A stretch of 64,000 nt of DNA from Candidatus Kaiserbacteria bacterium (GTDB lineage Bacteria; Patescibacteriota; Minisyncoccia; Phycocordibacterales; UBA2100), in assembly GCA_963767115.1 (NCBI GenBank), contig CAVYCR010000001.1:130430-194429 (forward strand). Direction: 5' to 3'. Positions 3,695 through 62,120 of the stretch are shown here, piece by piece; position 1 is the first letter of the stretch; every line of letters starts with the position of its first letter. A program made the position numbers and the translations under genes. The notes under the pieces were generated by a model. That model searched no databases. It saw only the letters and a program-made list of their open reading frames with translations, and was not told the DNA's origin.

Positions 3695-4918
3695 ATGGCA
3701 ACAAGAACTCTTGGATATCTTCTGCTTATCGCGGCGATCATTGTGGTCGCGGGCGTCGTCTATCGCGATTCGCTCAAGAGCGAAGTACCGCTCGTCTATA
3801 CGCCGACCCAGCTTCTCGAAGCGACATGGCTCAACTACAAGACCGAGTATGTGCAAGCCAACACCTATCGCACCGTCGATACAAGCAGCAACAGCATCAC
3901 AACCTCTGAAGGCCAGAGCTATACGATGCTGCGCGCCGTATGGATGGGCGACAAAACGACCTTCGATGGCGCGTGGCAGTGGACACAAGACAACATACAA
4001 CATTCGAGCGACCATCTCTTTGCATGGGAATGGGGCGAGACCGCGACGGGTACCTACGGTGTCCTCACGGCAGATAACGGGCAGAACAGCGCCTCCGATG
4101 CCGACACTGACATCGCGCTCTCGCTCGTCTTCGCCTATGGGCGCTGGCAGGACCCGACGTATCTTAAGGACGCGCGTGCGATCGTGACTGACATCTGGAA
4201 CGACGACGTGATAGAGGCGCAAGGCAAGCCATACATGAGTGCTGACGATCTCGAGAAAAAATCTCCCACCTGGGCTGTCATCGACCCTTCGTATTTCAAT
4301 CCTGCAGCGTATCGCATCTTCGCTCAGGTCGACCCCACTCATCCCTGGGCTGAACTCGTGACGGACTCTGATGCACTTCTTTTACAAAGCATGGGTGCTG
4401 ATCTCGGTTCATCGAAGAGCGACGGCTTGCCGCCGGATTGGTTCGAGATCAACAAAACGACCGGCGCCTTGCAGGCTGTACCGATCACAAGCGACGACAC
4501 CAACTTCGGCTACGACGCGATGCGTGTTCCCTTCAGACTTGCCCTCGATTACGAGTGGTACAAGGACCCTGAAGACCTCACGATCCTCTCCAAGATGTCT
4601 CTCCTGCAGGAAGTGTGGCACCAAAACGGGACGATCCCCTCGATCTCTGCACATGACGGCACTGTCGTTACTGCAAGCGAAGATGCATCGATCTACGGCG
4701 GCACAATCGGCTATTTTATGGTTGCCGACAAAGCCGACGCAGCAGATGTCTACAACCAAAAGTTGCTCTTCCTCTACAACCCCGGCGCCAACGCATGGAA
4801 GCTGCCACTCTCGTATTACGACGACAACTGGGCATGGTTCGGTATCGCGCTCTACAACGGAGAGCTGCCCAACCTTGTCTCACAGCTTCCTGCTTCCGCG
4901 TTCAGCCAATCATCATGA
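3695..4918 (+). CDS. Glycoside hydrolase family 8 endoglucanase (BcsZ-like), N-terminal membrane anchor
   Basis: ASDADTDIALSLVFAYGRW fits the GH8 active-site signature as I recall it (A-[ST]-D-[AG]-D-x2-[IM]-A-x-[SA]...). SEGQSYTMLRAVW lies upstream of it. The N-terminal TM segment is LGYLLLIAAIIVVAGVV. Confidence 0.85.
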   Translation: MATRTLGYLLLIAAIIVVAGVVYRDSLKSEVPLVYTPTQLLEATWLNYKTEYVQANTYRTVDTSSNSITTSEGQSYTMLRAVWMGDKTTFDGAWQWTQDNIQHSSDHLFAWEWGETATGTYGVLTADNGQNSASDADTDIALSLVFAYGRWQDPTYLKDARAIVTDIWNDDVIEAQGKPYMSADDLEKKSPTWAVIDPSYFNPAAYRIFAQVDPTHPWAELVTDSDALLLQSMGADLGSSKSDGLPPDWFEINKTTGALQAVPITSDDTNFGYDAMRVPFRLALDYEWYKDPEDLTILSKMSLLQEVWHQNGTIPSISAHDGTVVTASEDASIYGGTIGYFMVADKADAADVYNQKLLFLYNPGANAWKLPLSYYDDNWAWFGIALYNGELPNLVSQLPASAFSQSS

Positions 4919-4958
4919 TGAAAACGATTTAATACCTCTATAAATCAAAACCAAACGT

Positions 4959-6506
4959 ATGCAGCCCATCAGAAACATCCGTACCGATTTCCTACGCACC
5001 AACACGCCCAAGATCCTCTTCGCGATCAATGCGCTCCTCGCGATCACTTATTTCTGCGTCCTCACCTTTTTCTTCCCGGTAGGCAACCGCGTGCTCTTCG
5101 GGCTTTTGATAGCCGGCGAGGTCTACCATCTCTGGCAGGTCTTGACCTTCCTCTACACCGTGTGGGACACGAGCGACCCTGATGCGCCTGATGCCTCGTT
5201 CACACCGTCGGTTGATGTATTTATAACGGTCGCAGGAGAGCCGGTAGAGCTCGTTGAGCGGACCGCGCGCGCAGCACTTGCAATGGACTACCCCGCTTTC
5301 AATGTCTATCTCCTCAACGACGGCTACGTCGCACACAAAGACAATTGGGAGGAAATAGAAGGTCTGGCCGCACGACTCGGTATCGGTTGCATCACGCGCA
5401 CAACTCCCGGCGGCGCGAAGGCCGGCAACATCAACAACGCGCTTACGCTTACAGGAAGCTCGCTCGTCGCTATCTTCGATGCCGATCACGTACCGCATCG
5501 TGACTTCCTCATCAAGACCGCCGGCTATTTCAAAGACCCCAAGATGGGGTTCGTGCAGACGCCACAATTCTATAGCAACTACGCGCGTAACTATCTCACG
5601 ATGAGCTCGTGGGAGCAGCAAGAGATTTTCTTCGGTCCGATCTGCAAAGGCAAAAACAGACTGAATGCCGCCACCATGTGCGGCACCAACATGCTCATCA
5701 GCCGCGGAGCACTTACGTCTGTCGGCGGCATGAATACGCATTCGATCGCCGAAGATTTTGTGACCGGCCTTTTGATGCACGCGAGCGGCTATCGCTCGAT
5801 CTACGTGCCTACGGTCTTGGCTGAGGGTTTGGCGACCGAAGACTTACTCACCTATTCCAAGCAGCAGTTCCGTTGGGGACGCGGCGCTCTCGACGTCATC
5901 TTCCGTTGGAACCCGCTTCTTATGCGCGGCCTTACGTTCGCGCAGCGGATACAGTATCTCTCGTCAGCGAGCTTCTACCTCTCGGGGCTCTTTGTACTGA
6001 TTGATGCAATGTTGCCCGTCGTATTCTTCTACACTGGGCTCGTGCCTGTGCAGGTCGCCGGCATGTTTCTTGCGAGCATCTTCCTGCCGTACTTCTTCCT
6101 CACGCTCTATATGATCGAATACTCGTCGAATTTCACGTTCACCTTCTCGTCGCTGTGCTTCTCGATGGGCAGTTTCTCCATCCAGCTCAAGGCGCTCGGA
6201 AGTGCCTTGACTGGGACCAATGCAAAGTTTGAAATCACTGAGAAGCGCCGCAATAGTCAGATGGGTCAAACACCACAACGCACCTCGTATCTCTCGATCG
6301 TGAAATGGCACATCGTCTACATCGCACTTGTGATCGCCGGCATTCCGATCGCCTACTTGCGCGGGGGATTCTCTGCATCTCTCATCAACAATTGTGCGTG
6401 GGCATTCCTCAACATTGTGATATTCCTACCCTTCATCCGCGCGGCACTTCCGCAACAAGAAGCGTTTTATCAAGAAGAAGCTTCGCCCGCGCTCGCGACG
6501 CGGTAG
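4959..6506 (+). CDS. Cellulose synthase-like processive beta-glycan synthase (GT2, BcsA-like catalytic subunit, no PilZ domain)
   Basis: Motifs FDADHVP (DxD), SIAEDFVTG (TED-type) and QQFRWGRGAL (QxxRW), flanked by N- and C-terminal TM helices. The C-terminus is short and has no RxxxR/DxSxxG PilZ motif. Confidence 0.8.
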   Translation: MQPIRNIRTDFLRTNTPKILFAINALLAITYFCVLTFFFPVGNRVLFGLLIAGEVYHLWQVLTFLYTVWDTSDPDAPDASFTPSVDVFITVAGEPVELVERTARAALAMDYPAFNVYLLNDGYVAHKDNWEEIEGLAARLGIGCITRTTPGGAKAGNINNALTLTGSSLVAIFDADHVPHRDFLIKTAGYFKDPKMGFVQTPQFYSNYARNYLTMSSWEQQEIFFGPICKGKNRLNAATMCGTNMLISRGALTSVGGMNTHSIAEDFVTGLLMHASGYRSIYVPTVLAEGLATEDLLTYSKQQFRWGRGALDVIFRWNPLLMRGLTFAQRIQYLSSASFYLSGLFVLIDAMLPVVFFYTGLVPVQVAGMFLASIFLPYFFLTLYMIEYSSNFTFTFSSLCFSMGSFSIQLKALGSALTGTNAKFEITEKRRNSQMGQTPQRTSYLSIVKWHIVYIALVIAGIPIAYLRGGFSASLINNCAWAFLNIVIFLPFIRAALPQQEAFYQEEASPALATR

Positions 6507-6509
6507 CCT

Positions 6510-8141
6510 ATGGAATCCTCTATGGCCAAGAACTCTACACGTGTATCCGGGCTTCGGGGAATGCTTTTTGCGACCCGAACGATAGGCGGAAGCGCGAAAA
6601 ACATTCCCCGAAGCCTGGTCGGTCGCACGTGGAGCACGAGTCGAACTTTCGTTATTTGCGCGCTCATCGCCTGCATGGCGATACCGATCTTCCTTTCCGC
6701 CTTTTTCTTCATGGGACAGAGCCTGCGACTCGACGAGGCGCAGAGCCTCTGGCAGACATCTCGCAGTTTCGGCGACATTTTCACGGTCGTCGCCGGTGAC
6801 GTGCACGTGCCGCTGTATCACCTCTTACTCAGGTTCTGGCGCCTCTATGTCGGCAACACAGTCACTGATGCACGTGCGCTCTCGTTGCTCTTCTATGTCA
6901 TCTCGATCCCAGTGCTTTACATGCTTGGCCGTAGAGCATATGAAAGCCGCACTGCGCTCTTTGCCACCTTCCTCTTCTCGATCTCGCCGTTTATGAATTG
7001 GTACGGCAACGAAGTGCGCATGTACACGCTCTTCACACTCTTCGTCATACTCAACCAATATTTCTACGTCCGTATTTTCAAAGCCAAAGCAGACGGTGGT
7101 GAACCGAGCGACCATATTTGGGCCGGCTATACACTCACCGCTCTCTTCGGCGCGTTTACACATTATTTCTTCTTTCTCAATTTGCTCGCACAAGCCGTCT
7201 TCTATTTCCTCCGCCGCGACCTCTTCCCTATAGGTTCTCTGAAACGATTTATTTTTGCAGCAGTTATCGTCGTCGGTAGTTTCCTACCATGGGGATGGTA
7301 TGTGCTCCACCTCGGCACTGCCGGCTTCCAAGAGCCCGTCTTAGCGCTCCCCTCTTCGGTTGATTTCTTCAGCGCCTTCGGCCAATTCCTCTACGGTTTT
7401 CAGAACGACAACGTCAACACGGTCTTCCTCTCACTCTGGCCGATCGTAGTAGTGCTTGGGCTCATTTCGCTCAGGCGAAGTCATAGACTCCAAGCAGAGA
7501 GCGAATATTTCCTGCTCACGGTGCTGCTCTCGTTTGCGGTAGCTTTCTTCGGGAGCTTCGTGCTCGCACCCGTTTTCGTGAGCCGCTACCTCATCTTCAC
7601 CATCCCCGCTTTCTACCTCTTGCTCGCGAGTCTCTTTGAAAATTATTCGCCGCGTATGCAAGAGCTGGCGCAATGGGGACTCGCGTGCATTATGATAGCG
7701 ACCCTCGGGCTCGAGATTATCAACCCTACGATGCCCGTGAAAGAAGATTACTCGCAGGCGGTCGCATACATCGACACGCACGCGACCTCGCAAGACAGTG
7801 TGATCCTCTCCGCGCCGTTCACCATCTATCCAGTGCAGTATTACTACACGGGCCAAGCACCAGTAACCACGCTCCCTATATGGAACCAATACGCTTACGG
7901 CGGGATTCCGGCTTTTAGCGCAAGTACGCTTGCCTCACAAGTACAGCAAGACGTCGGTGCGAGTCAAAATATTTATCTCTTGCTCTCGTACAACCAAGGC
8001 TACGAGCTCGACATCAAAAACTATTTCGATTCGCACTATCAAATGGTCTACAGTCAGACCTTCTCTGACGATCTCAATCTCTACGTCTACAAAGCCCGCT
8101 ATGACACGGGCGCAACAGCTATTGCAACCACGTTGAAATAA
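6510..8141 (+). CDS. Polytopic GT-C glycosyltransferase (ArnT/PMT, GT39/83-like)
   Basis: 543-aa multi-TM ORF. The N-terminal loop LRLDEAQSLWQTSRSFGDIF...HVPLYHLLLRFW...NEVRMYTLF resembles the ArnT/PMT family. The start is uncertain (6510 or 6522). Confidence 0.6.
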   Translation: MESSMAKNSTRVSGLRGMLFATRTIGGSAKNIPRSLVGRTWSTSRTFVICALIACMAIPIFLSAFFFMGQSLRLDEAQSLWQTSRSFGDIFTVVAGDVHVPLYHLLLRFWRLYVGNTVTDARALSLLFYVISIPVLYMLGRRAYESRTALFATFLFSISPFMNWYGNEVRMYTLFTLFVILNQYFYVRIFKAKADGGEPSDHIWAGYTLTALFGAFTHYFFFLNLLAQAVFYFLRRDLFPIGSLKRFIFAAVIVVGSFLPWGWYVLHLGTAGFQEPVLALPSSVDFFSAFGQFLYGFQNDNVNTVFLSLWPIVVVLGLISLRRSHRLQAESEYFLLTVLLSFAVAFFGSFVLAPVFVSRYLIFTIPAFYLLLASLFENYSPRMQELAQWGLACIMIATLGLEIINPTMPVKEDYSQAVAYIDTHATSQDSVILSAPFTIYPVQYYYTGQAPVTTLPIWNQYAYGGIPAFSASTLASQVQQDVGASQNIYLLLSYNQGYELDIKNYFDSHYQMVYSQTFSDDLNLYVYKARYDTGATAIATTLK

Positions 8142-18179: not shown

Positions 18180-18281
18180 TCGTGAGCCGACTGGTTTTTG
18201 GGGTCGATGCCTCGCGGCGGCGCGAAATAGAGTTCTTTTTCAGCAGAAAAAGAACGACCCCAAAAGCCAGTCGGCTCACGA
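18180..18281. repeat. Long foldback element A (26-27 bp arms, 48-nt interior with nested hairpin)
   Basis: Arms 18181-18206 cgtgagccgactggtttttggggtcg and 18255-18280 cgaccccaaaagccagtcggctcacg are complementary except for one T/G position. The interior contains gttcttttt-cagcag-aaaaagaac. Confidence 0.8.
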
Positions 18282-19259: not shown

Positions 19260-19430
19260 GGCCGGAACCTCTGGCATCTCTCTTTGCGAACATGCCGCGA
19301 TAGCTTGCGGCACGACCCCTAAAACAAAAAGCGCCTTGCTAGGCGGTTTTTGTTTTCCACTACTCTATGACGTGGGAATGTGACATCTGCTGCGCGAGGT
19401 TCGCAAAGAGAGATGCCAGAGGTTCCGGCC
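19260..19430. repeat. Foldback element B (conserved-core family; 32-bp perfect arms; embedded bidirectional terminator)
   Basis: Arms 19260-19291 and 19399-19430 are perfect reverse complements. The inner 9 nt of each arm (tttgcgaac / gttcgcaaa) and the 107-nt interior are shared, in inverted orientation, with the elements at 27770-27934 and 51626-51794. The interior hairpin aaaacaaaaagcgcc-ttgcta-ggcggtttttgtttt (19321-19357) is terminator-like on both strands. Confidence 0.85.
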
Positions 19431-19443
19431 CTAGATACCATAG

Positions 19444-19470
19444 AAAACGCCGCGTATGATGCGGCGTTTT
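19444..19470. terminator. Bidirectional intrinsic terminator
   Basis: aaaacgccgc-gtatgat-gcggcgtttt: a 10-bp stem including A/T extensions. Confidence 0.6.
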
Positions 19471-19490
19471 CATACACTGGTAGTTACTGC

Positions 19491-20939: not shown

Positions 20940-21059
20940 GGGCCGCCTGGCCTGACAGTTACTTTTTCATTCGAGGACCGAACCCGCAGACCGCGAAGCG
21001 GGCGTGAGGGCGCTATGCGTCCCGCAGAATGAAAAAGTAACTGTCAGGCCAGGCGGCCC
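20940..21059. repeat. Long foldback element C (33-bp perfect arms, 54-nt GC-rich interior)
   Basis: 20940-20972 gggccgcctggcctgacagttactttttcattc is the exact reverse complement of 21027-21059. It lies 28 nt downstream of the cca stop (minus strand). Confidence 0.8.
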
Positions 21060-22877: not shown

Positions 22878-22946
22878 CTAGCGCACTTACCCACCGTCGC
22901 GGTTTCAGCGGGCCTTGCCCGCCGAAGCCCGCTATGGCGGGCGAAG

Positions 22947-23017
22947 GCGGGCATGGTTTAGTGGTAGAACGGCGCCTTGCCAAGGCGCAGACGGGAGTTC
23001 GATTCTCCCTGCCCGCA
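22947..23017 (+). tRNA. tRNA-Gly (anticodon GCC)
   Basis: GCGGGCA...TGCCCGCA acceptor, anticodon arm GCGCC-TTGCCAA-GGCGC, T arm GGGAG-TTCGATT-CTCCC. No encoded CCA. Confidence 0.9.
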
Positions 23018-23857: not shown

Positions 23858-24037
23858 GTTAAGAGATCCTACCACAGAAGTTGAAGTAGGGGAGCCAAAT
23901 GCCAAAGTTTCGTAAGCGAGAAAATCTGATAAGATTGGGCAAACTCGCCGTCGCGAACTACAGCGGGCCTTGCCCGCAGGAGCTCGCTTTGGCGAGCGAG
24001 GGCCCTCCTCCTTCGCCAAGGCTTCGGAGGGGGCAAT

Positions 24038-24108
24038 GCGGGATTAGTTTAGTGGTAAAACGACAGTTTTCCAAACTGTAGTTGGGAGTTCGATTCTCCC
24101 ATCCCGCA
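24038..24108 (+). tRNA. tRNA-Gly (anticodon TCC)
   Basis: GCGGGAT...ATCCCGCA acceptor, anticodon arm ACAGT-TTTCCAA-ACTGT, T arm GGGAG-TTCGATT-CTCCC. No encoded CCA. Confidence 0.9.
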
Positions 24109-24679: not shown

Positions 24680-25414
24680 ATGGAAATAAAAGAGGCTCTT
24701 GCTGCACTTGGTCTGAATGAAAAGGAGGCAGCTGTGTATATGGCGCTTCTCGAGCTCGGGCGGGCTTCCGCTTACTCGGTTTCCACTAGGAGCGGGCTCA
24801 AAAAGCCAACGACCTATGTCATATTGGATGAGTTGATTCGCAAAGGTCTCGCAGTGCAGGTCCCGCGGGAGAAAAAGCAGCTGTATGTGGCGCGGTCGGC
24901 GGAAGAAGCCTTTGGGGTCGCACAAGAACGACTCGATCTCGCGAAAAAGAAACTACCCGAAATCCTTGCACTTACCAAGGGCGAATCGACGAAGGTTAGC
25001 ACGATTTACTTCGAAGGCATTCGTGGCATACAGCAGACGATGGAATACGGGCTCAAAGCGATGAAAGGGAAAGAGATCGTAGGATTTTATGCGATCGCGC
25101 CGGATGAAAACACGGATCTGAATGCATATTTCAAAGAATGGAACGACTTGCGCCACTCACTCGGCATCCGGATGCGCGGTATCGCGCCGGAACATGCGAA
25201 TCTCAAGGAATATCGAGATGACGACGCTGAAATGGGCCGTGAATTCAAATCAGTGCCATACGAGGAGTTCTCATCGGAGATCGCAATCGATGCGACCGAC
25301 ACGACGGTCCGCATTCAAGATTACAAGAATTTGCAAGGGATCGTCATTGAAAATAGGGAAGTCGCCAAGACTTTGCGGGAGATCTTCGAGATGGCATGGA
25401 AGAATTTGCGCTAG
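24680..25414 (+). CDS. TrmB-family transcriptional regulator
   Basis: N-terminal winged HTH LGLNEKEAAVYMALLELGRASAYSVSTRSGLKKPTTYVILDELIRKGLA is typical of the TrmB family. 244 aa. Confidence 0.8.
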   Translation: MEIKEALAALGLNEKEAAVYMALLELGRASAYSVSTRSGLKKPTTYVILDELIRKGLAVQVPREKKQLYVARSAEEAFGVAQERLDLAKKKLPEILALTKGESTKVSTIYFEGIRGIQQTMEYGLKAMKGKEIVGFYAIAPDENTDLNAYFKEWNDLRHSLGIRMRGIAPEHANLKEYRDDDAEMGREFKSVPYEEFSSEIAIDATDTTVRIQDYKNLQGIVIENREVAKTLREIFEMAWKNLR

Positions 25415-25478
25415 ATGTGGTATGGAACACAAAACCCGCCTTGCGGGCGAGTCTGTGCGTTCTCGAGAAAGTAAGAAT

Positions 25479-25756
25479 CTATTTCACTGCGTCCTTCAAG
25501 GTCTTCGAAGCGCGGAATTTCGGCACTTTCATCGTCTTGATCTGAATCGTCTGCGCCGGTGCGCGGGTTGCGACCCGTGCGACCGGCGCGGGTCTTCGCC
25601 TCAAAAATTCCCAAGCCTGCGATAGAAACTTCTTCGCCGCTGCTTGAGATGCTCGGTAATGGCCATGATGATCGCCTCTACCGCGCGCTCGCCGTCGGCC
25701 TTGGTGCAGCCGATCGTTGAGGCAACCTTCTCAACCAAATCCATTTTATTTGCCAT
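25479..25756 (-). CDS. hup: HU-family DNA-binding protein; reading frame broken twice (+1, +1) as sequenced
   Basis: Three consecutive frames together spell a complete HU protein: MANKMDLVEKVASTIGCTKADGERAVEAIIMAITEHLKQ | GEEVSIAGLGIFEAKTRAGRTGRNPRTG | QTIQIKTMKVPKFRASKTLKDAVK*. Junctions lie near 25636-25642 and 25551-25557. The span is 278 nt, i.e. 3n+2. Confidence 0.8.
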
Positions 25757-25896
25757 ATGTTTTATCGTTATGATGAATAAATGCATTATATCCCTCGACC
25801 AAACCTAAGTACCATTTTGAGCCCTATTTTGATGATGTCAATCAAAAATCATTGTGCTATCCACAGGTAGGAATTGGCTTAACAAAGGCTTGAATA

Positions 25897-26068
25897 TGGC
25901 AATTCGCCACGTCGCAGGGGTTTTGCAAACTGTTCGTACTTGCCCAAGTGACGTACCTAAAAAATTATCAAGGTGAAGCCTTGATAATTTTTTCTACTGC
26001 CAATTTCATAGCCGTCTCTTTTTCGCTGCGCGAGGTTCGCAAAACCCCTGCGACGTGGCGAATTGCCA
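25897..26068. repeat. Foldback element D (variant of the conserved-core family; 34-bp arms, 1 mismatch)
   Basis: Arms 25897-25930 and 26035-26068 are complementary except for one A/C position. It shares the termini ttttgcaaac ... gctgcgcgag-gttcgcaaaa with element B but has a different interior hairpin, aaaaaattatcaagg-tgaag-ccttgataatttttt. Its right arm abuts the rny stop codon at 26069. Confidence 0.8.
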
Positions 26069-27602
26069 CTATCTCGCGTATTCGATCACGCGTGTCTCGC
26101 GGATAACGCTCACTTTGATTTCGCCCGGATATTGCATCTCTTCTTGAATCTTGTCGGCGATGTCACGTGCGATCTTGCGCGCGTCGAGGTCGGTGACGTT
26201 TTCGGGCTTCACAATGACGCGGATCTCGCGACCGGCCGCTATCGCGTAACTCTTGTCGACGCCGGGAACGTTGTTGGCGATCGCTTCGAGTTCTTCGAGG
26301 CGCTTGATGTAGTTCTCGACGCTGTCGCGGCGCGCGCCGGGGCGGCCGCCGGAGATCGCATCGGCGACCTGCACGATCATGCTTTCGGGCGTCTCGTACG
26401 GATATTCCTCATGGTGTGCTTGCATAGCTTTTACGACTCGCTCGTCGACGCCGAACTTCTGCAAGTATACGACGCCCGATCTCGACGTGAGTGCCCGGCA
26501 CTTCGTGGTCGACTGCCTTGCCGATATCGTGAAAGAGCGCGCCGGCGCGTGCGATAGCAGGATCGGCACCAAGCTCCTCGGCAAGCATGCCTGCGAGGTG
26601 TGCGACTTCGACTGAGTGGTCGAGGACGTTTTGGCCGTAGCTCGTACGGAAGTAGAGGCGGCCGAGGATCATGATGAGCTTCGGGTCGAGGTCGGGGACG
26701 CGTGCGGCGTACGCTGCCTCCGCGCCTTTCTTCTTGATGATGGTGTTGATCTCAGCTTCGGCTTTCTGCACGGCCTCTTCAATCTTCGCGGGTTGGATAC
26801 GACCGTCGAGAATGAGATTCTCAAGCGCGATGCGCGCGACCTGGCGGCGTATCGGATCGTATGAGGAGAGGGTAATGGTGCCCGGCGTATCATCGACGAT
26901 GACGTCGACGCCGGTGGAGCGCTCGAATTGGCGGATATTGCGGCCTTCCTTGCCGATGATCTTGCCCTTGATCTCGTCGTTGGGAAGCGTGACGGTCGTT
27001 GCAAGTACATCTGAGACGACGGAATTGCCGAGGCGATGCACGGCGGTCGTGAGGATTTCCTTGGCGCGCTGCTCAAGGCGCTGGTCGCCCGAGATCTCAA
27101 GCTTGCGCATGCGGCTCTCGATGTCGCTCTCGTAGCGGCGTTCGACTGCTTTGATCAGCTCTGACTTCGCGTCATCAGCCGAGAGATTGGCGATGCGCTC
27201 GAGTTGTTCTTGCTGGCCGCGCGCGGCTTCCTCGAGAGCCTGGCGTGCCGCTGAGAGATCCTCGTTCTTGCGGGCGAGGTTTTCCTGTTCGGCATCGAGG
27301 TTGGTCTGGCGATTATCGAGCAATTCTTCCTTGCGGACGAGGCGTTCCTCGACGCTCTTGAGCCCGCGCTCGCGCTCTTTGAATTCGTCGCCGATCTCAC
27401 GGGCTTTTTCTTCGGCACGGGCCTGTGAATCTTCGGTGATCTGCTTTGCCTTTTCTTCGGCGTCAAGCATCATCTTGCGGACTTGCAGCTCCATCGAGCC
27501 GCGTTTGCCGAGACTAATAATATATCGGAGAAAGTAGCCTATTCCGACGCCCGCCAAACCCACAAGGGCGAGAAGAGCGAGCAAAAGTTTGACTGAAATC
27601 AT
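26069..27602 (-). CDS. rny: Ribonuclease Y; reading frame broken once (+1) as sequenced
   Basis: N-terminal TM segment, coiled coil, KH domain (IKGKIIGKEGRNIRQFE) and HD domain (ALFHDIGKAVDHEV) are in ORF 26409..27602. The remainder (QKFGVDERVVKAMQAHHEEYPYETPESMIVQVADAISGGRPGAR...) is in ORF 26069..26584. The junction is near 26458-26466. The span is 1534 nt, i.e. 3n+1. Confidence 0.85.
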
Positions 27603-27769
27603 ACGCGGCTAAACCGCGCGGGCATTGAGCGCTAAAAAACGGCTGTAAATATAACTATTTTATCTACTGCAGTAAGTGGACGCATATGCTCGATCGCGGA
27701 GAATGAAAATTAATTAATGGATGGTACGCAGATGAGTATAGCACGCAGACTAAAAGCTACTAGTAGTGC

Positions 27770-27934
27770 GCCGCCGCTCTGGTTAGGTGTTTGCGAACCT
27801 CGCGCAGCAGATGTCACATCCCCACGTCATATAGTAGTGGAAAACAAAAACCGCCCAGCAGGGCGCTTTCTGTTTTGAGGGTCGGTATCTAAGCTATTGC
27901 GGTATGTTCGCAAACACCTAACCAGAGCGGCGGC
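27770..27934. repeat. Foldback element E (conserved-core family; 29-bp perfect arms)
   Basis: Arms 27770-27798 and 27906-27934 are perfect complements. The 107-nt interior is near-identical to those of elements G and B (B inverted). It ends 5 nt from the clpP stop (minus strand). Confidence 0.85.
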
Positions 27935-27939
27935 AGCAA

Positions 27940-28542
27940 CTAACTCAACACCTTATCGACAATACCGTACTTCAGGGCCTCCTCGGCCGTCATGAAGAAG
28001 TCGCGGTCGACGTCGTTCTCGATCTTTTTGAGGGCTTGGCCGGTGGATGCGGAGAGAATCTTGTTGAGACGCTCACGGAGCTTCAAGATCTGCTTAGCTG
28101 TGATTTCGATATCGGCAGCCTGACCTTCTGCTCCTCCGTGTGGCTGATGGATCATGACCTCGGCGTTTGGCAAGATATAACGCTTGCCCTTCTCGCCCGC
28201 AGCGAGCATTACCGCTGCCATACTTGCTGCCATGCCGACGCATACGGTAGAGACGGGCGGTTGCATATGGCGCATGGTGTCGATGATAGCAAGGCCGGCC
28301 GTGACTACGCCGCCGGGGGAGTTGATATAGAGGGAAATCTCTTTCTTCGGGTCTTCAGACTGCAAGAAGAGCAACTGGGCTATCACGAGGTTGGCCACTT
28401 CGTCGTTGATCGGGCCACCGAGGAAGATGATGCGCTCGCGGAGCAAGCGGCTGAAGATGTCGTATGCGCGTTCGCCCATCGAAGTCTTCTCGACGACCAT
28501 GGGTACGAGCATTTGTGCTTTGATCTGAGGGATGTTTTGCAT
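27940..28542 (-). CDS. clpP: ATP-dependent Clp protease proteolytic subunit
   Basis: Full-length match to ClpP: [22 protein letters not shown]...[18 protein letters not shown]...[14 protein letters not shown]...MIHQP. Confidence 0.95.
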
Positions 28543-39378: not shown

Positions 39379-40599
39379 ATGGCGCACTTTTCTTACACGG
39401 CACAGAAGACCGACGGCGAGACGTACCAGGGCGTCGCCGAGGCTCCCGATCGTTTCCAGCTCTACGAGATCATCCGGCGCGAAGGCGGCAAGGTGATCTC
39501 GGTCGACGAGCAAAAGCATACCGGCGTGTGGAGCGCCGACTATTGGAACCAGAAGATGACGCGCGTGAAGGAGTACGAGAAGATACTCTTCGCGAGAAAC
39601 TTGGGCGCCATGCTCTCCGCCGGTCTCGCGCTCTCCCGCGCGCTCTCGGTCATGGAGCGCCAGACCAAGAACATCAAGCTCAAGGCGATCATCGCGGACA
39701 TTGGCAGCGAAGTGCGCCGGGGCAATCCGCTCCACGCGGGGCTCGAGAAGTTTCCGAAGGTATTCCCGAAGCTCTTCGTCGCGATGGTGCGCGCGGGCCA
39801 GGAGGGCGGCGACCTGCCCGCTTCGCTCACGCTGGTAGGCGACCAGATGGAGCGCATGTACGACCTCAAGAAGAAAGTGAAAGGCGCCCTGATCTACCCT
39901 TCGATAATCGTGGTCGCGATCGTTGGCATCGGTATCGTAATGATGATCGTGGTCGTGCCGACTCTCGCAGCTACCTTTGAACAGAGTCATGAGACATTAC
40001 CGGCCTCGACGCAGTTTGTCATCAACGTAAGCAACTTCCTCGTGCATTACACCGTGCTTGCGATAGGTGGCATGATCGGGTCCGTGGTGCTTGTGTATCT
40101 TGCTAGCAAGACTAAGGTGGGGGGTCGCGCTTTTGAGTTTCTCTTTTTGCATACACCGGTTGTCGGCAATCTCATGCGCGAGGTGAACGCAGCTCGTACC
40201 GCGCGCACGCTCGGCTCGCTGCTTGCCTCCGGCGTCGACGTGCTTACCTCACTCACGATCGTGCACGAGGTCTTGCAAAATTCGTATTTCAAGCAAGTGA
40301 TCGACGAAGCGCAGGCCGCGGTACGCGCCGGCGAGCAGCTCTCGACGGTCTTCGAGAAGCGCGTCGATCTCTACCCGCCCTTTGTAGGAGAGATGATCGC
40401 GGTGGGCGAGGAGACCGGCGCCACGACCGAGATGCTCAAGCGCATCGCCGTGTACTACGAAGACAATGTCGACCGTTCCACCAAAGACATGTCGACGATC
40501 ATCGAACCCTTCCTCATGATCATCATCGGGTGCGCTGTCGGCTTCTTTGCGGTCTCTATGATCACGCCGATCTATCAGCTCTCGTCTAATATAAATTAA
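39379..40599 (+). CDS. pilC: Type IV pilus / type II secretion platform protein (PilC/GspF family)
   Basis: 406 aa with two T2SSF repeats (ILFARNLGAMLSAGLALSRAL...; LGSLLASGVDVLTSLTIV...) and three TM segments. It ends IIGCAVGFFAVSMITPIYQL. Confidence 0.9.
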   Translation: MAHFSYTAQKTDGETYQGVAEAPDRFQLYEIIRREGGKVISVDEQKHTGVWSADYWNQKMTRVKEYEKILFARNLGAMLSAGLALSRALSVMERQTKNIKLKAIIADIGSEVRRGNPLHAGLEKFPKVFPKLFVAMVRAGQEGGDLPASLTLVGDQMERMYDLKKKVKGALIYPSIIVVAIVGIGIVMMIVVVPTLAATFEQSHETLPASTQFVINVSNFLVHYTVLAIGGMIGSVVLVYLASKTKVGGRAFEFLFLHTPVVGNLMREVNAARTARTLGSLLASGVDVLTSLTIVHEVLQNSYFKQVIDEAQAAVRAGEQLSTVFEKRVDLYPPFVGEMIAVGEETGATTEMLKRIAVYYEDNVDRSTKDMSTIIEPFLMIIIGCAVGFFAVSMITPIYQLSSNIN

Positions 40600-40638
40600 C
40601 GAGCTTCTCGGGACTAGTCGCTAGCTTCTAGTGAAATC

Positions 40639-42372
40639 ATGAAAAAACAGCTTTCAACTGTCCCACGCGGCCTCACGCTCATCGATACGATGGTCGGCAT
40701 CGCGCTTATGGTGCTGGTCTTCGTCGGGATCTACGGCACCTTCCAGCTGACTGTCGATGTAGTGACCAACGAAAAGGCACAAGCCGGTGCGCTCGGGCTT
40801 GCCGATGAGCGGATGGAATACCTGCGCTCGCTCGGCTACAGCGCTGTCGGCACGGTAGGCGGTGTGCCCTCGGGGAATCTCCCGCAGACGGAGAGTCTCT
40901 CGCTCAACGGGATTAGTTACACGCGACGTACCTATATCGAATACGACGATGATCCGGCAGATGGTCTGGGTAGTAGCGATACCAACGGCATCATCGAAGA
41001 TTACAAATCCGCCAAGGTAGAAGTGCTCTGGAGCTTGAAGGGGATCACGCACAGCGTCGTGCTTGTCGCACGCTTCTCTCCGACGACTGGTATGGAATCA
41101 GCGGTGCCCGGCGGCACGCTCATAATCAATGCAGTCAATTCTGTCGGAGCGCCGATCTCCGGCGCGTCTGTAGCAATCGTGGCAACCTCTGCCTCGCCCA
41201 CGGTCAACATAAATACCTTCACCAATGCGAGCGGCACCGCGACCGTACTCGGCGCGCCCGCGTACTCGGGCTATCAGGTCACGGTGACTGCTTCCGGCTA
41301 TTCGACCGCAAGCACCTACAGCGTGACGAGCCAAAACACCAACCCCAATCCCGGCAATCTTTCGGTCACCAAGAACCATACGACATCCGCAACTTTCGCG
41401 ATCGATCTCCTCGGCACCAAGACCGTTAACACTTGGACACAGGTACTCAGTGGCACATCGACCGACCCCTTCAACAACACAAGCGAGATAGCAACATCAA
41501 CCGGCATTTCTGTGACTGGTGGCGCGGCACAACTTGCCGTAGGCTCGACTACTGGCGAAGTACAATCGGTCGCGTTTAGTCCTTCATATCTTGCCGATTG
41601 GGGGACCTTCACCTGGAGCGATACTCAGCCTGCGAGCACCTCGATCCGCTATCGACTCTACAGCGGCGACGGCACGACCCTCGTTCCTGATTCATATGTG
41701 CCAGGAAATGCCGCGGGTTTTGTGAGCGGCAGCGTGAGTCTTTCCGGTGTTCCAACCAGCACCTATCCTTCACTGCGCCTTGATGCGGTCTTCTCTTCGG
41801 CAAGTACTACGACGACACCATCGCTCACGCTCTGGAGTATCACCGACTCGTACGGCCCTGTGCCGCTTCCCAACATCGCCTTCAATCTCCAAGGCGGCAA
41901 GACAATCGGCAGCGGCCCCGGCGGTACGCTTTACAAATACAGTCAGAACTTCAGCACCGCGGGCAACGGGAGCATCACCATCCCAGGTCTTGAGTGGGAC
42001 AATTACACGGTCACGATCAGCGGCTCAAGCGGCTACGATGTGGCTTCAGCTTGCAACCCGCAGCCCGAGAGTCTTTCGCCGGGATCTACCATGACCAGCA
42101 ACTTCTATCTCGCGGCGCATACGGGGAACTCGCTTCTAGTAGACGTGCGCGGTGCGACAAGTGGCGCCCTGATCCCGAACGCCTCGGTACAGCTCTCGAT
42201 CGCGGGCTACAATAAGACGATACCGACTGATAACTGCGGACAGGCGTTCTTCTCGGGTGTCTCCGCATCAAGTAATTATTCGATCAGTGTGTCTGCGCCA
42301 GGATATTCGACATACAATGGAAGTGCGGTGAGCGTGAACGGCACTTCGAGACTCTCAGTGTCGTTGAATTAA
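40639..42372 (+). CDS. Large pseudopilin-like protein (prepilin-type N-terminus, Ig/CarboxypepD_reg-like repeats)
   Basis: MKKQLSTVPRG|LTLIDTMVGIALMVLVFVGIYG is a pilin-like leader and helix. The remainder is rich in T/S/G beta-type repeats (GAPISGASVAIVATS..., GALIPNASVQLSIAG...). Confidence 0.7.
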   Translation: MKKQLSTVPRGLTLIDTMVGIALMVLVFVGIYGTFQLTVDVVTNEKAQAGALGLADERMEYLRSLGYSAVGTVGGVPSGNLPQTESLSLNGISYTRRTYIEYDDDPADGLGSSDTNGIIEDYKSAKVEVLWSLKGITHSVVLVARFSPTTGMESAVPGGTLIINAVNSVGAPISGASVAIVATSASPTVNINTFTNASGTATVLGAPAYSGYQVTVTASGYSTASTYSVTSQNTNPNPGNLSVTKNHTTSATFAIDLLGTKTVNTWTQVLSGTSTDPFNNTSEIATSTGISVTGGAAQLAVGSTTGEVQSVAFSPSYLADWGTFTWSDTQPASTSIRYRLYSGDGTTLVPDSYVPGNAAGFVSGSVSLSGVPTSTYPSLRLDAVFSSASTTTTPSLTLWSITDSYGPVPLPNIAFNLQGGKTIGSGPGGTLYKYSQNFSTAGNGSITIPGLEWDNYTVTISGSSGYDVASACNPQPESLSPGSTMTSNFYLAAHTGNSLLVDVRGATSGALIPNASVQLSIAGYNKTIPTDNCGQAFFSGVSASSNYSISVSAPGYSTYNGSAVSVNGTSRLSVSLN

Positions 42373-42373
42373 T

Positions 42374-42459
42374 ATGAGAAAACAGCTTTTAGCTTCTAGC
42401 TCACAGCTTCTAGGAAAAATACGTCGGCGTTCTTTGTATTTTCTAGAAGCTAGAAGCTC
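42374..42459 (+). repeat. 86-nt 5' module, copy 1 (hairpin built from GCTTCTAG / CTAGAAGC units)
   Basis: It differs from 43066-43151 at one position by manual alignment. It contains 2x gcttctag, aaaatac-loop-gtatttt, then 2x ctagaagc, giving a ~23-bp imperfect hairpin at 42391-42458. Confidence 0.85.
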
Positions 42460-43069
42460 TTCACTAGAAGCTCGTTCTCGGGGCATGACCCTCATCGAAA
42501 CGGTAGTGTGGATCGCGGTGCTTTCCTTCGCCATGCTCGCGCTCACTACCTCGCTTCTGTATTTCTACCGGACCGATCGGTACGAAATACAGGAAGAGTA
42601 CGCCGTCTCGACGGCACAGCATGCGATGGATGCGATGGTCCGCGCGCTGCGCACGGCCGCGTTTTCCAACAACGGCGCGTATCCCATCCTGTCGATCGCG
42701 CCCGACCAGATCTCTTTTTATGCGAGTGTGTTGCCCAACGATCCTCTGATACAACAGGTGCGCTTCTTCGTCTCCGGCAACTCTATCGAAGAAGGTATCA
42801 TCGAGCCGCAAGGAGACCCGCTCACCTACGCCTCGTCGTCGGAGAGCATTACTGACCTCGGCAATTACGTCCTCAATGCGACACTCGCGACATCGACGTT
42901 CTACTATTACGATCAAAACGGCAATCAAATAACCGACGATTCGCAGTCTGACCAAGTACGCTTCGTAGTGGTGAACCTCGTTGTCGATGTCTCTACCTCG
43001 TCCTTGCCGTCGCAGCTCACGCTCGTTTCTTCCGCGGCGCTGCGCAACTTGCTCAATCTCAATATATGA
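42374..43069 (+). CDS. Pseudopilin-like protein with unusually long 37-aa leader
   Basis: ...EARSRG|MTLIETVVWIAVLSFAMLAL has G at -1 and E at +5. The ATG lies 1 nt after the previous stop. The first 86 nt are duplicated at 43066. Confidence 0.7.
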   Translation: MRKQLLASSSQLLGKIRRRSLYFLEARSSSLEARSRGMTLIETVVWIAVLSFAMLALTTSLLYFYRTDRYEIQEEYAVSTAQHAMDAMVRALRTAAFSNNGAYPILSIAPDQISFYASVLPNDPLIQQVRFFVSGNSIEEGIIEPQGDPLTYASSSESITDLGNYVLNATLATSTFYYYDQNGNQITDDSQSDQVRFVVVNLVVDVSTSSLPSQLTLVSSAALRNLLNLNI

Positions 43070-43151
43070 GAAAACAGCTTTTAGCTTCTAGCTCGCAGCT
43101 TCTAGGAAAAATACGTCGGCGTTCTTTGTATTTTCTAGAAGCTAGAAACTA
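43066..43151 (+). repeat. 86-nt 5' module, copy 2
   Basis: See 42374-42459. The ATG overlaps the previous stop (ATGA). Confidence 0.85.
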
Positions 43152-50326: not shown

Positions 50327-50438
50327 CTGCCCCGTCCCAACCCCATTATGCCGGCTACGCAGGCCCGGCGGGGCCGAGTCCGAGCGCTGGGCGAGCACGC
50401 CCAGATAGCGACGGCATAATGGGGTCGGGACGGGGCAG
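50327..50438. repeat. Long foldback element F (27-bp arms with one A/C position, 58-nt GC-rich interior)
   Basis: 50327-50353 ctgccccgtcccaaccccattatgccg pairs with 50412-50438 cggcataatggggtcgggacggggcag. It starts 7 nt after the recJ stop. Confidence 0.8.
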
Positions 50439-51617: not shown

Positions 51618-51625
51618 AATGTCGA

Positions 51626-51794
51626 CAGAAACGTAAGCAGTGCGGTGTTTGCGAACCTCGCGCAGTAGATGTCACATCCCCACGTCATACAGTAGTGGAA
51701 AACAAAAACCGCCCAGCAGGGCGCTTTTTGTTTTGAGGGTTTTCACATGACTCATCGCGGTATGTTCGCAAACACCGCACTGCTTACGTTTCTG
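51626..51794. repeat. Foldback element G (conserved-core family; 31-bp perfect arms)
   Basis: Arms 51626-51656 and 51764-51794 are perfect complements. The interior is near-identical to element E. It starts 9 nt after the RNase H stop. Confidence 0.85.
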
Positions 51795-51818
51795 CCGCAT
51801 ATGTTAGAGTAATCACAT

Positions 51819-58029: not shown

Positions 58030-58386
58030 ATGCAAAGCAAGAAGGATTCGGTTACCAACGAGAAAATATTCGGTCTCCTCTTGGATATGGATGAACGTAT
58101 CACGTCAATGGACGAGCGCATTGCCTCAATGGACGAGCGCATTACATCTATGGACGAGCGCATTATATCTATAGATGGACACGTTAATTCCATTGATGAG
58201 CGGATGGCAACCAAGGCCGATCTTCGCGAGTACGCCACCAAGAATGATCTTGAACGATTCAGGGATGAGATCCTTAAGGAAGTACGACCGCTCCATAGGG
58301 CGGTCGATACGGATGCCGAGACCATTATCGACCATGGCAGGCGCATTACCGCTCTCGAAAAACACGCAGGCATCGCGCCCCGATAA
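58030..58386 (+). CDS. Hypothetical coiled-coil protein with 7-aa tandem repeats
   Basis: MDERI[TA]S occurs four times, followed by two degenerate units (21-bp tandem repeats at 58087-58212). The start is taken at the ATG at 58030. Confidence 0.5.
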   Translation: MQSKKDSVTNEKIFGLLLDMDERITSMDERIASMDERITSMDERIISIDGHVNSIDERMATKADLREYATKNDLERFRDEILKEVRPLHRAVDTDAETIIDHGRRITALEKHAGIAPR

Positions 58387-60731: not shown

Positions 60732-61148
60732 ATGGCTACCATCAACCAGCTCACGCGCAAAGGACGCACTAACCCTGTGCGCAAGACGAAGACCCTCGCA
60801 CTCGCGCGTGGCTTCAATTCATTGAAAAATCGCCCGAGCTTCTATCCTTCGCCTTTCAAGCGCGGCGTCTGCACGCGCGTGACCACCAAGACTCCCCGCA
60901 AGCCAAACTCCGCTATCCGAAAGATCGCCCGCGTACGCCTGACCAACGGCATGGAAATCACCGCCTACATCCCGGGAGAGGGACACAACCTCCAGGAGCA
61001 CTCGGTCGTCTTGGTGCGCGGTGGCCGCGTGAAGGACATCGGTATCCGTTACACGATCGTGCGCGGCAAGCTTGATGCGACCGGTGTCGACAAGCGCCGC
61101 CGCGGCCGTTCACGCTATGGCGCGAAGCGCCCGAAGGCAGCCAAATAA
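60732..61148 (+). CDS. rpsL: 30S ribosomal protein S12
   Basis: [12 protein letters not shown]...[31 protein letters not shown]...[21 protein letters not shown]. The ORF-track start at 60660 is an upstream extension. Confidence 0.95.
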
Positions 61149-61180
61149 TCTCAAAGTTCAAATCTAAAATCTCAAATCTT
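61147..61180 (+). repeat. AATCTCAAAG-TTCAAATCT-AAAATCT repeat, copy 1 (rpsL-rpsG spacer)
   Basis: The 25-26 nt atctcaaagttcaaatctaaaatct recurs inverted at 62091-62116 and, with two changes, at 61654-61681. Confidence 0.8.
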
Positions 61181-62090: not shown

Positions 62091-62120
62091 TAGATTTTAG
62101 ATTTGAACTTTGAGATCTGC
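62091..62120 (-). repeat. AATCTCAAAG repeat, copy 3 (inverted)
   Basis: The reverse complement reads gcagatctcaaagttcaaatctaaaatcta. Confidence 0.8.

Follow-up and report, generated by a model that had tools for sequence, protein, structure and literature searches.

A small interspersed repeat with copy-specific palindromic arms and a terminator-like hairpin lies between clpP and rny in a Kaiserbacteria-type bacterium

The 64-kb stretch of DNA analysed here (hereafter, the window) belongs, judging from homologues of its ClpP and RNase HI, to the Kaiserbacteria/Paceibacterota section of the CPR. Between its clpP and rny genes lies a 165-nt foldback, E, made up of a 125-nt core that is flanked on each side by a unique arm. 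The foldback as a whole was delimited using the sequence, a repeat search and fold energies. The features of the locus are as follows.

27770..27934, no strand assigned: foldback E, whole
27940..28542, minus strand: clpP, 200 aa (Pfam CLP_protease, E=1e-83), whose 3' end abuts E
26409..27602, minus strand: rny (RNase Y) N-terminal ORF (Pfam RNase_Y_N+KH+HD), the downstream neighbour of E
27770..27789, no strand assigned: rny-side unique arm of E, distal to clpP, 20 nt, GCCGCCGCTCTGGTTAGGTG
27915..27934, no strand assigned: clpP-side unique arm of E, CACCTAACCAGAGCGGCGGC, the end of which is 5 nt from the clpP stop codon
27790..27914, plus strand: conserved core of E from left to right terminus, defined by alignment and profile search
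27790..27808, plus strand: best-conserved block, the 19-nt left end TTTGCGAACCTCGCGCAGC, which includes the 9-bp left terminal repeat
27906..27914, plus strand: right terminal repeat of E, GTTCGCAAA, defined by alignment
27841..27876, no strand assigned: central two-way terminator-like module, with an A-rich run at 27841-27850 and a T-rich run at 27866-27876
27735..27743, minus strand: extended -10-like box of the putative rny promoter, TGCTATACT, inferred from conservation and not flagged by our consensus scan

In the repeat search, the arms of E extended over 37 nt (27770-27806 / 27898-27934) with a complementarity of 92%. Their outer 29 bp (27770-27798 / 27906-27934) are perfect, with 29 Watson-Crick pairs, no G:T pair and no mismatch, as the initial annotation of this DNA had stated. 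The same annotation had called these arms unique, which is correct for the outer 20 bp, GCCGCCGCTCTGGTTAGGTG, for which we found no second match with up to 5 mismatches in the window or in related loci, but not for the inner 9 bp, TTTGCGAAC, which turned out to be the terminus of a repeat family. With the arm ending at 27934 and the clpP stop codon at 27940-27942, the earlier observation that E ends 5 nt from the stop codon was likewise borne out. Only short, spurious ORFs were found in E, none of them of note. To place the foldback against expectation, we counted perfect inverted repeats of at least 16 bp with a loop of up to 220 nt, and found six in the window versus none in 20 window shuffles, while the fold energy of E (about -100 kcal/mol) corresponded to z-scores of -10.6 (minus strand) and -10.9 (plus strand). 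In light of these shuffle counts and z-scores, we conclude that the foldback did not arise by chance.

A profile built from the members of the family and searched over the window identified exactly four of them, B, D, E and F, of which B, D and F are listed here.

19260..19430, minus strand: copy B, 14 nt past the xer stop codon and followed by a canonical terminator at 19443-19471
25897..26068, minus strand: copy D, whose termini are those of the family but whose centre is divergent; its arm touches the rny stop codon (26069-26071)
51623..51797, plus strand: copy F, between rnhA and comEC, 5-8 nt past the rnhA stop codon

E had previously been described as the second full copy of a conserved core. 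The core is indeed repeated; since the profile search returns three full copies, E among them, together with one divergent copy, E is not merely a 'second' one. The F core (51648-51772) lies on the same strand as E, which it matches at 97% over 97 nt (51644-51740), whereas the B core (19283-19407) is inverted relative to E and shows 88% identity over 125 nt, and the D core (25922-26043) lies on the opposite strand to E and has the same ends around a different centre. Across the family, core length ranges from about 92 to 125 nt. When the copies were aligned, their identity ended abruptly at 9-bp terminal inverted repeats, TTTGCGAAC...GTTCGCAAA, which are perfect in B, E and F as well as in two copies from other assemblies (L020 and L082), and which carry one mismatch in D. 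In E and F four additional bases per side are held in common, giving 13 bp, GGTGTTTGCGAAC. Within the window and the related loci, the terminal 9-mers were found only in the four short copies. The 19-nt left end is identical in B, D, E and L020, with one mismatch each in F and L082, and an AGTAG-AAAA motif in the core precedes the central hairpin. Outside the termini, by contrast with this shared core, each copy has specific arms of 20-25 bp (GCCGCCGCTCTGGTTAGGTG in E, GGCCGGAACCTCTGGCATCTCTC in B, CGACAGAAACGTAAGCAGTGCGGTG in F and TGGCAATTCGCCACGTCGCAGGGG in D), and no other occurrence of the B, D, E or F arms was found with up to 5 mismatches in the window or related loci. Just inside the termini the pairing is imperfect (CTCGCGCA versus TGCGGTAT) in the same way in B, E and F, a conserved imperfection that argues against rampant 'perfecting' of the palindromes.

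A foldback with a terminator-like hairpin at a gene 3' end could be an ordinary terminator that arose in situ, or a chance palindrome, and in either case would be neither a repeat nor mobile. This explanation, to which we assign almost no probability, is already refuted by the multi-copy evidence: there are four copies in 64 kb with 88-97% identity over 125 nt, including the non-palindromic parts, and more copies in other metagenomes; E is absent from the corresponding spacer of a close relative (L004), and shuffles never yield such repeats.

We then searched for the family beyond the window. The pattern formed by both termini, TTTGCGAACCTCGCGC-N85-115-GTTYGCAAA, gave nothing genuine in 185,579 species-representative genomes, its two hits being orthologous coding sequence of Thermoguttaceae MAGs and hence chance matches, and had no match in metagenome and viral collections; nor did the central 22-mer match anything in the viral collection. 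A metagenome scan with the left-end 18-mer returned 70 loci. Only two of them, L014 and L020, also have the right terminus and the foldback; the other 68 lie in unrelated sequence, most of it coding, and were rejected as chance matches. Members outside the window thus come from two other metagenomic lineages only. In the first of these, L014 and L020 are identical in sequence and represent a 92-nt deletion derivative with 13-bp unique arms; the L020 copy follows the stop codon of a 738-aa gene, and a separate canonical terminator lies after the copy. In the second, L082 (Logan SRR22808010), the RNase H of which is 82% identical, a D-type core with imperfect arms occupies the rnhA-comEC spacer. 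The family is therefore restricted to a narrow group of Kaiserbacteria/Paceibacterota-like CPR bacteria. At the gathering threshold, Rfam recognised four tRNAs only in the whole window, and a permissive Rfam scan of 27600-27960 reached at best 14.6 bits, against thresholds of 47-70. A blastn search against plasmids and phages gave only a 32-nt generic terminator-hairpin match to Ralstonia megaplasmids. A tRNA-like origin of GGTTCGCAAA, which we also considered, was ruled out by the absence of a T-arm stem.

Apparent frameshifts in rny and in the HU gene indicate that the sequence quality of the window is imperfect, and E might in principle be an assembly or polishing artefact, for example a foldback chimera in the MAG contig. 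An independent short-read assembly, L003 (Logan ERR11630394), reproduces the clpP stop codon, the proximal arm and 77 nt of the core of E exactly before its contig stops inside the repeated core, and this exact match makes an artefact unlikely for E. In the same way, the L081 short-read contig reproduces the arm that copy F has on its rnhA side, as far as the terminus, and stops in the core, as expected of a genuine repeat, and family members are present in the unrelated assemblies L014, L020 and L082. We regard an artefact as extremely improbable.

All six known copies lie between co-directional genes, directly past the upstream stop codon, at distances of 0 nt (D), 5 nt (E), 5-8 nt (F), 6-9 nt (L020), 9 nt (L082) and 14 nt (B). 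Relative to the upstream gene, the right terminus is entered first in B, E, L020 and L082, and the left terminus first in D and F. The orientation of E had been reported as opposite to that of B, in keeping with a terminator that works in both directions. This opposition holds on the plus strand only, because xer (plus) and clpP (minus) are also on opposite strands; relative to incoming transcription B and E are alike, and the argument drawn from them does not stand. Use of the element in both orientations is instead evidenced by D (after rny) and F (after rnhA), and by the comparison of F with the L082 copy, which sits at the F-orthologous site in the opposite orientation to F.

At the centre of the E core is a stem of five G-C pairs (27852-27856 / 27861-27865, CGCCC/GGGCG) with the loop AGCA; the stem is short, and its extra A:U pairs come from the U-tract itself. 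In the consensus scan, the clpP strand reads CGCCC-TGCT-GGGCG followed by GTTTTTGTTT, and the other strand carries the mirror site followed by CTTTCTGTTT. The sequence part of the earlier claim of a two-way terminator was thereby upheld, as the E core hairpin fits the intrinsic-terminator consensus on both strands. The scan made terminator-like calls on both strands in B, E and F. The hairpin is CGCCC/GGGCG in E and F and CGCCT/AGGCG in B, a compensatory change, while unrelated perfect hairpins occupy the same position in D (ATTATCAAGG/CCTTGATAAT) and in L082 (ATACCGAG/CTCGGTAT). The module of A-run, hairpin and T-run is thus found in five of the six known copies, the exception being the L020 copy, which is without a central hairpin. 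When RNAalifold was run on five cores, the consensus added little beyond the terminal helix, because MAFFT misaligns the unrelated central hairpins.

The hairpin of E was the sole terminator-like site that the consensus scan detected between clpP and the rny promoter, and E probably acts as a bidirectional terminator, as judged from its sequence. Since copies B and L020 are each followed by a separate canonical terminator, and L020 has no hairpin, such a role is not general to the family. Transcription from clpP enters the E core from the right terminus. The transcripts would cover first the proximal arm, next the right-hand half of the core, then the hairpin CGCCC-UGCU-GGGCG and GUUUUUGUUUU, and for most of them the 3' end would fall some 95-100 nt after the stop codon, near 27845-27841. 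Because they would end at the central hairpin, E would supply clpP with its terminator and insulate the rny promoter. No promoter-like site was found in or beside the E core by the consensus scan. A promoter inside the core, suggested by TATAGT in E, was considered and rejected, since D, L082 and L020 lack the motif and it has no -35 partner.

When the predicted terminated clpP RNA was folded, the proximal arm was left without a strong partner. If transcripts stop at the central hairpin, the rny-side arm is untranscribed, so the 29-bp outer stem cannot shape the terminated clpP RNA. In this model, a role for the outer stem is confined to read-through RNA and to DNA that is single-stranded or cruciform. 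Read-through RNA alone would hold both arms, and would be expected to fold into a 29-37-bp duplex, a plausible substrate for RNase III.

Comparison of orthologous loci indicated that these elements come and go. In the window, the clpP-rny spacer measures 337 nt. The spacer is shorter, at 199 nt, in L004, which has a 98% identical ClpP; here E is absent, its rny-side arm has no counterpart, and a decayed remnant of an L007-type hairpin is found instead. In L007 (225 nt) E is absent and that other hairpin is intact, with a 16-bp stem; it belongs to the GGTCGGGCCTT family, which itself has copy-specific outer pairs. The L009 spacer (217 nt) has neither E nor a long hairpin, and that of L005 (308 nt) holds a different foldback, which begins right at the clpP stop codon and has unique arms of 20 bp. 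Across the related loci, the clpP 3' end holds three different types of element. Further downstream, about 27 nt beyond the distal arm of E, the box TG(C/G)TATACTC is kept in all five related loci, and the rny leader that follows it is conserved as well. E therefore occupies the sole variable stretch, from the clpP stop codon to the rny promoter. Copies B and D, too, are additional sequence when compared with the orthologous spacers (xer-exonuclease and rny-HU, respectively) of L005 and L007, and in L084, a more distant relative, the rnhA-comEC spacer contains nothing but an ordinary terminator. On this comparative evidence, E appears to have been gained after the split from the relative with the 98% identical ClpP, arriving, as we propose, in the short permissive interval that separates the clpP stop codon from the rny promoter. 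This pattern of presence and absence among the spacers of relatives implies that the family is duplicative, that it is young at the clpP-rny site and that it is dispensable.

We next consider the arms. Over 13 foldbacks in the clade, about 96% of arm pairs are Watson-Crick, and G:T accounts for 4 of the 19 pairs that are not, making it no commoner than other mismatches. These pairing statistics suggest a process at the level of DNA rather than selection on one RNA strand, and point to the arms being a DNA-level feature and not an RNA-selected stem. The same architecture surrounds other cores. A second core family has unique perfect arms of 27-33 bp in the window (50327-50438), in L009 (10545-10656) and in L007 (17256-17368); further foldbacks with unique perfect arms lie at 18180-18281, 20940-21059 and 6547-6618 and in L005 (4851-4981), and small palindrome families with unique arms are present in L007 and L020. 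Overall, the window contains 0.28 perfect inverted repeats per kb (arm of at least 10, spacer of up to 8), versus about 0.01 in shuffles. According to published work, no other phylum equals this clade in its density of perfect inverted repeats, for which 9.7 per kb is quoted. Our figure is far lower, presumably owing to different counting rules, and a direct comparison of the two densities is not warranted.

These data bear on the idea that E is an RNA-level device, in which the outer stem would be an RNase III site that separates the clpP and rny messages and frees the core as a stable small RNA or, in a variant, a protective 3' structure for the clpP message, with the 19-nt left end as the functional part. 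The very stable fold on both strands would suit such a device, as would the position of six out of six copies between co-directional genes right past a stop codon, the stronger conservation of the left end relative to the remainder, and the precedent of Correia-element transcripts that are bound or cleaved by RNase III (PMC2649163). A working central terminator would, however, leave the distal arm untranscribed, the arms show no enrichment of G:U pairs, and both a promoter-like site in or beside the core and an Rfam match are absent. Moreover, copies occur in both orientations relative to transcription, so that host transcripts could not yield a strand-specific RNA at all sites, and E is absent from a very close relative (L004) and must therefore be dispensable. 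An RNA-level device is accordingly improbable as an explanation.

How, then, might the arms have been made? Replication template switching can generate a perfect stem in a single event and subsequently keep it perfect (PMC8794818, PMC5941160). We speculate that replication of the hairpin-forming core is prone to an intrastrand template switch (snap-back), which would copy one flank as its reverse complement on the other side and so produce a perfect arm in one event. Taken as a whole, then, our leading account, which we put forward tentatively, is that E is a non-autonomous interspersed repeat that lands past stop codons and carries a terminator hairpin, with arms made by template switching. 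A classical cut-and-paste MITE mechanism is unsupported, because target-site duplication is not visible: there was no direct duplication either at the termini or outside the arms, and the flanks are instead reverse complements of one another for 13-25 bp. In addition, no transposase-sized element bounded by the family termini was found in the 64-kb window, and no Y1 transposase was found by Pfam among the genes adjoining the foldbacks.

The order of events could also have been the reverse, with the arms older than the core: the lineage would generate long perfect palindromes downstream of its genes. By this structure-targeted route, the core would insert at the symmetry centre of a palindrome, for instance at a hairpin tip in single-stranded DNA, the arms would be the two halves of the target palindrome, and the other core families would behave likewise. 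Unoccupied palindromes with 16-26-bp arms and 0-4-nt spacers do exist in relatives (L007 15579-15632 and 9916-9955; L009 3347-3385; L020 10439-10475 and 11130-11170). Sites are also re-used, as seen from the three types of element at the clpP 3' end and from the rnhA-comEC spacer, which holds an E-type core in the window and an opposite D-type core in L082. Both arms of B and both arms of D are extra relative to the outgroups, and the pairing runs unbroken from the terminal repeat into the arm. Against insertion into a palindrome, the 64-kb window has no unoccupied palindrome with arms of more than 16 bp alongside eight to nine occupied ones with cores of 20-112 nt, and the arms do not resemble the genome's canonical terminators, with their A-run, GC-stem and T-run; both observations favour template switching. 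Among the compared loci we found no occupied/empty pair with the same arms, and our analysis identified no enzyme that recognises arbitrary palindrome centres; to our knowledge, none is known. We consider insertion into a pre-existing palindrome unlikely, if still a serious competitor.

Arm ancestry was tested by shuffling. An ancestral status of the E proximal arm, judged against the L004 flank, gave p = 0.06-0.14, and homology with compensatory changes between the arms of F and L082 gave p = 0.37 and 0.05; both ideas are suggestive at most and were set aside, and the arms of F and L082, despite their orthologous site, are not demonstrably homologous, which does not help the case for insertion into a palindrome. 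For B and D, neither arm has a recognisable counterpart in the more distant relatives L005 and L007. Since these ancestry tests were non-significant and the imperfection inside the termini is conserved, we prefer the template-switch model over insertion at a palindrome centre only slightly. It is a doubtful extension that Kaiserbacteria-type CPR bacteria have a distinct way of propagating or building palindromes, whether through a class of hairpin-shaped mobile cores whose insertion, by hairpin-primed (snap-back) synthesis, duplicates the target flank in inverted form, or by insertion at the symmetry centres of arbitrary palindromes.

In our best reading, the E family is a SPRITE-, MITE- or REP-like small interspersed repeat that bears a terminator, and repeats of this kind are known already. 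By analogy, the closest functional counterpart is SPRITE of S. pneumoniae, a terminator-like interspersed repeat that is enriched near CDS 3' ends and has possibly been co-opted (PMC3049150). Both are shorter than 200 bp, non-coding and predicted to fold like an unusually long intrinsic terminator, and for both a transposase partner is not identified and target duplication not established. However, the termini of SPRITE are no more than AAAA/TTTT, and its 18-bp stem is conserved from copy to copy, whereas the E family has a 125-nt, mostly non-palindromic core, 9-bp termini and a long stem that is copy-specific; the two have zero sequence similarity and come from different phyla.

CREE/NEMIS elements of Neisseria resemble the E family in being intergenic, about 100-155 bp long, and built of a conserved core with inverted-repeat ends (PMC2649163, PMC10969869). 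They are co-transcribed with neighbouring genes, whose expression they influence, and their transcripts, once folded, are substrates of RNase III (PMC2649163, PMC10969869). Their inverted repeats, however, are about 26 bp long and alike in all copies, and they can create promoters. CREE are flanked by a TA target duplication and have an IHF site. In the E family, the conserved repeat is only 9-13 bp, the TA duplication and a promoter-like site are absent, and the host is a CPR bacterium.

REP/BIME and REPIN sequences, which RAYT transposases (TnpA-REP, Y1 HUH) mobilise, are similarly extragenic palindromes past stop codons that can stabilise or terminate transcripts, REPINs being doublets that fold into long hairpins (PMC2229807, PMC3184786). 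In REP and REPIN the whole palindrome is conserved, a GTAG head stands at its 5' end and the genome has a RAYT gene, whereas in the E family the stem is copy-specific and the GTAG-containing AGTAG lies inside the core before the central hairpin, not at the head of the palindrome. With MITEs the E family has in common that it is short, non-coding, multi-copy and intergenic, with terminal inverted repeats and predicted stable stem-loop transcripts, and that its presence or absence varies between relatives (PMC10969869). It differs from them in that its flanks are inverted and not direct repeats (13-25 bp), and a parent IS with matching ends was not seen in the window. Integron attC sites, which lie downstream of genes and function as folded single strands, are imperfect palindromes (57-141 bp) with conserved ends (RYYYAAC...GTTRRRY) and a variable centre. 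The E family has the converse arrangement of a conserved centre and variable ends; its GTTCGCA breaks GTTRRRY at position 4, and an integrase and a cassette array are absent. Finally, the hairpins made by template switching and quasipalindrome correction are like the arms of E in having a perfect Watson-Crick stem with no G:U intermediates (PMC8794818, PMC5941160), although template switching has been described as a general mutational mechanism and not as the regular companion of an interspersed repeat.

What is unusual about the E family is that every copy lies within its own perfect 20-25-bp palindromic arms, that the same arm architecture is found around unrelated cores of the same clade, and that this clade is the one reported to have the top density of perfect inverted repeats. 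Were it true that insertion or replication makes the arms, these elements would offer a natural system for studying template-switch palindromes or a new mode of insertion, and the process could be the cause of the record perfect-inverted-repeat density of these phyla, a striking compositional feature of the CPR. Genes would at the same time gain ready-made two-way terminators. The elements are also useful for annotation: in organisms whose transcripts have not been mapped, they flag the 3' ends of genes and the probable boundaries of transcripts. Short-read assemblies are broken by them, as illustrated by L003 and L081, both of which end in the core.

Inverted repeats in which a conserved core lies inside copy-specific arms are not limited to the family of E, the foldback between clpP and rny. 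A second core family has members in the window and in two loci from relatives, L007 and L009:

Window 50327-50438: foldback of the second core family
L009 10545-10656: foldback of the second core family
L007 17256-17368: foldback of the second core family

The core, of about 55 nt (GCTATCTGGGCG..CGCCCAGCGCT), contains a covarying inner hairpin and likewise lies within unique perfect arms, here of 27-33 bp. In L007 and L009 these copies occupy an orthologous site, 3' of the gene for the CCA-adding enzyme. The orthologous site in the window, where the exonuclease and CCA-adding enzyme genes converge, also carries a foldback (20940-21059; 33-bp perfect arms, 54-nt loop), whose arms are unrelated to those in L007 and L009 and whose loop is just vaguely similar.

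The same design is seen on a smaller scale in L007, where a family of small hairpins shows a conserved inner stem (GGTCGGGCCTT / AAGGCCCGACC), a loop that is found in either orientation, and outer pairs that are copy-specific:

L007 8364-8420: small hairpin
L007 8687-8736: small hairpin
L007 10603-10644: small hairpin
L004 ~1214-1240: remnant of a small hairpin

Two perfect, almost spacer-less palindromes in a further locus, L020 (10439-10475 and 11130-11170), have a common inner sequence, CCATTTAGGACACG|CGTGTCCTAAATGG, and outer pairs that differ; they stand at both ends of a 221-aa ORF.

Turning to the placement of these elements, a canonical symmetric terminator (GAAAACGCCGC-gtatgat-GCGGCGTTTTC, window 19443-19471) was identified 12 nt past copy B, the member of E's family downstream of xer. 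This arrangement indicates that B entered the gap between the stop codon of xer and a terminator that was already there; in L007, half of this terminator can still be recognised. On the other side of xer, a foldback with 27-bp arms (18180-18281) contains a terminator-like hairpin within its loop (18232-18255). This foldback separates xer from a divergently transcribed GH6 gene. A terminator would serve no purpose there, so the foldback's position argues that terminator function is not the sole determinant of foldback placement in this genome. Another unique foldback in the window (6547-6618; 26-bp arms with 2 G:T pairs and 1 mismatch, 20-nt loop) is found about 40 nt past the stop codon of the gene at 4959-6506. 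In L005, whose ClpP is 92% identical, a different foldback (4851-4981) begins right at the clpP stop codon, and its 20-bp unique perfect arms enclose a core of 91 nt that includes a terminator-like hairpin of its own.

Upstream of rny, a leader of about 130 nt (window 27603-27743, minus strand) is conserved block-wise across five relatives (the window, L004, L005, L007 and L009). The conserved blocks are TG(C/G)TATACTC, TTAATTA, GAGCATATGCGT, TAGCCGTTTTGTAACGC and CGCGG...CCGCGTATG. The leader had no match in Rfam and could have a role in regulating RNase Y. The rny gene itself (26069-27602, minus strand) is divided in the window between two overlapping ORFs, of 397 aa and 171 aa; in relatives it is a single gene of 510 aa. 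A 118-aa fragment (P0248) is also present in the source's own annotation. The HU gene downstream (25411-25786) is apparently split too (61 aa and 67 aa). These splits represent either assembly frameshift errors or pseudogenes.

The window contains other repeats. Two 43-nt sequences (CAGCGGGCCTTGCCCGC...; 22906-22948 and 23961-24003), 86% identical, each precede a tRNA gene (22947-23017 and 24038-24108). An 87-nt direct repeat (42372-42458 and 43064-43150; 98% identical, 692 nt apart) contains many CTAGAAGCT units and lies at the borders of consecutive ORFs, with related motifs at 40598-40659. Tandem repeats of 21 nt (ATGGACGAGCGCATT...; 58087-58212) run in frame within a coding region. Finally, a perfect AT-rich inverted repeat of 25 bp (61148-61172 and 62092-62116) surrounds 919 nt containing two small opposed ORFs, and may mark a small invertible or mobile segment.
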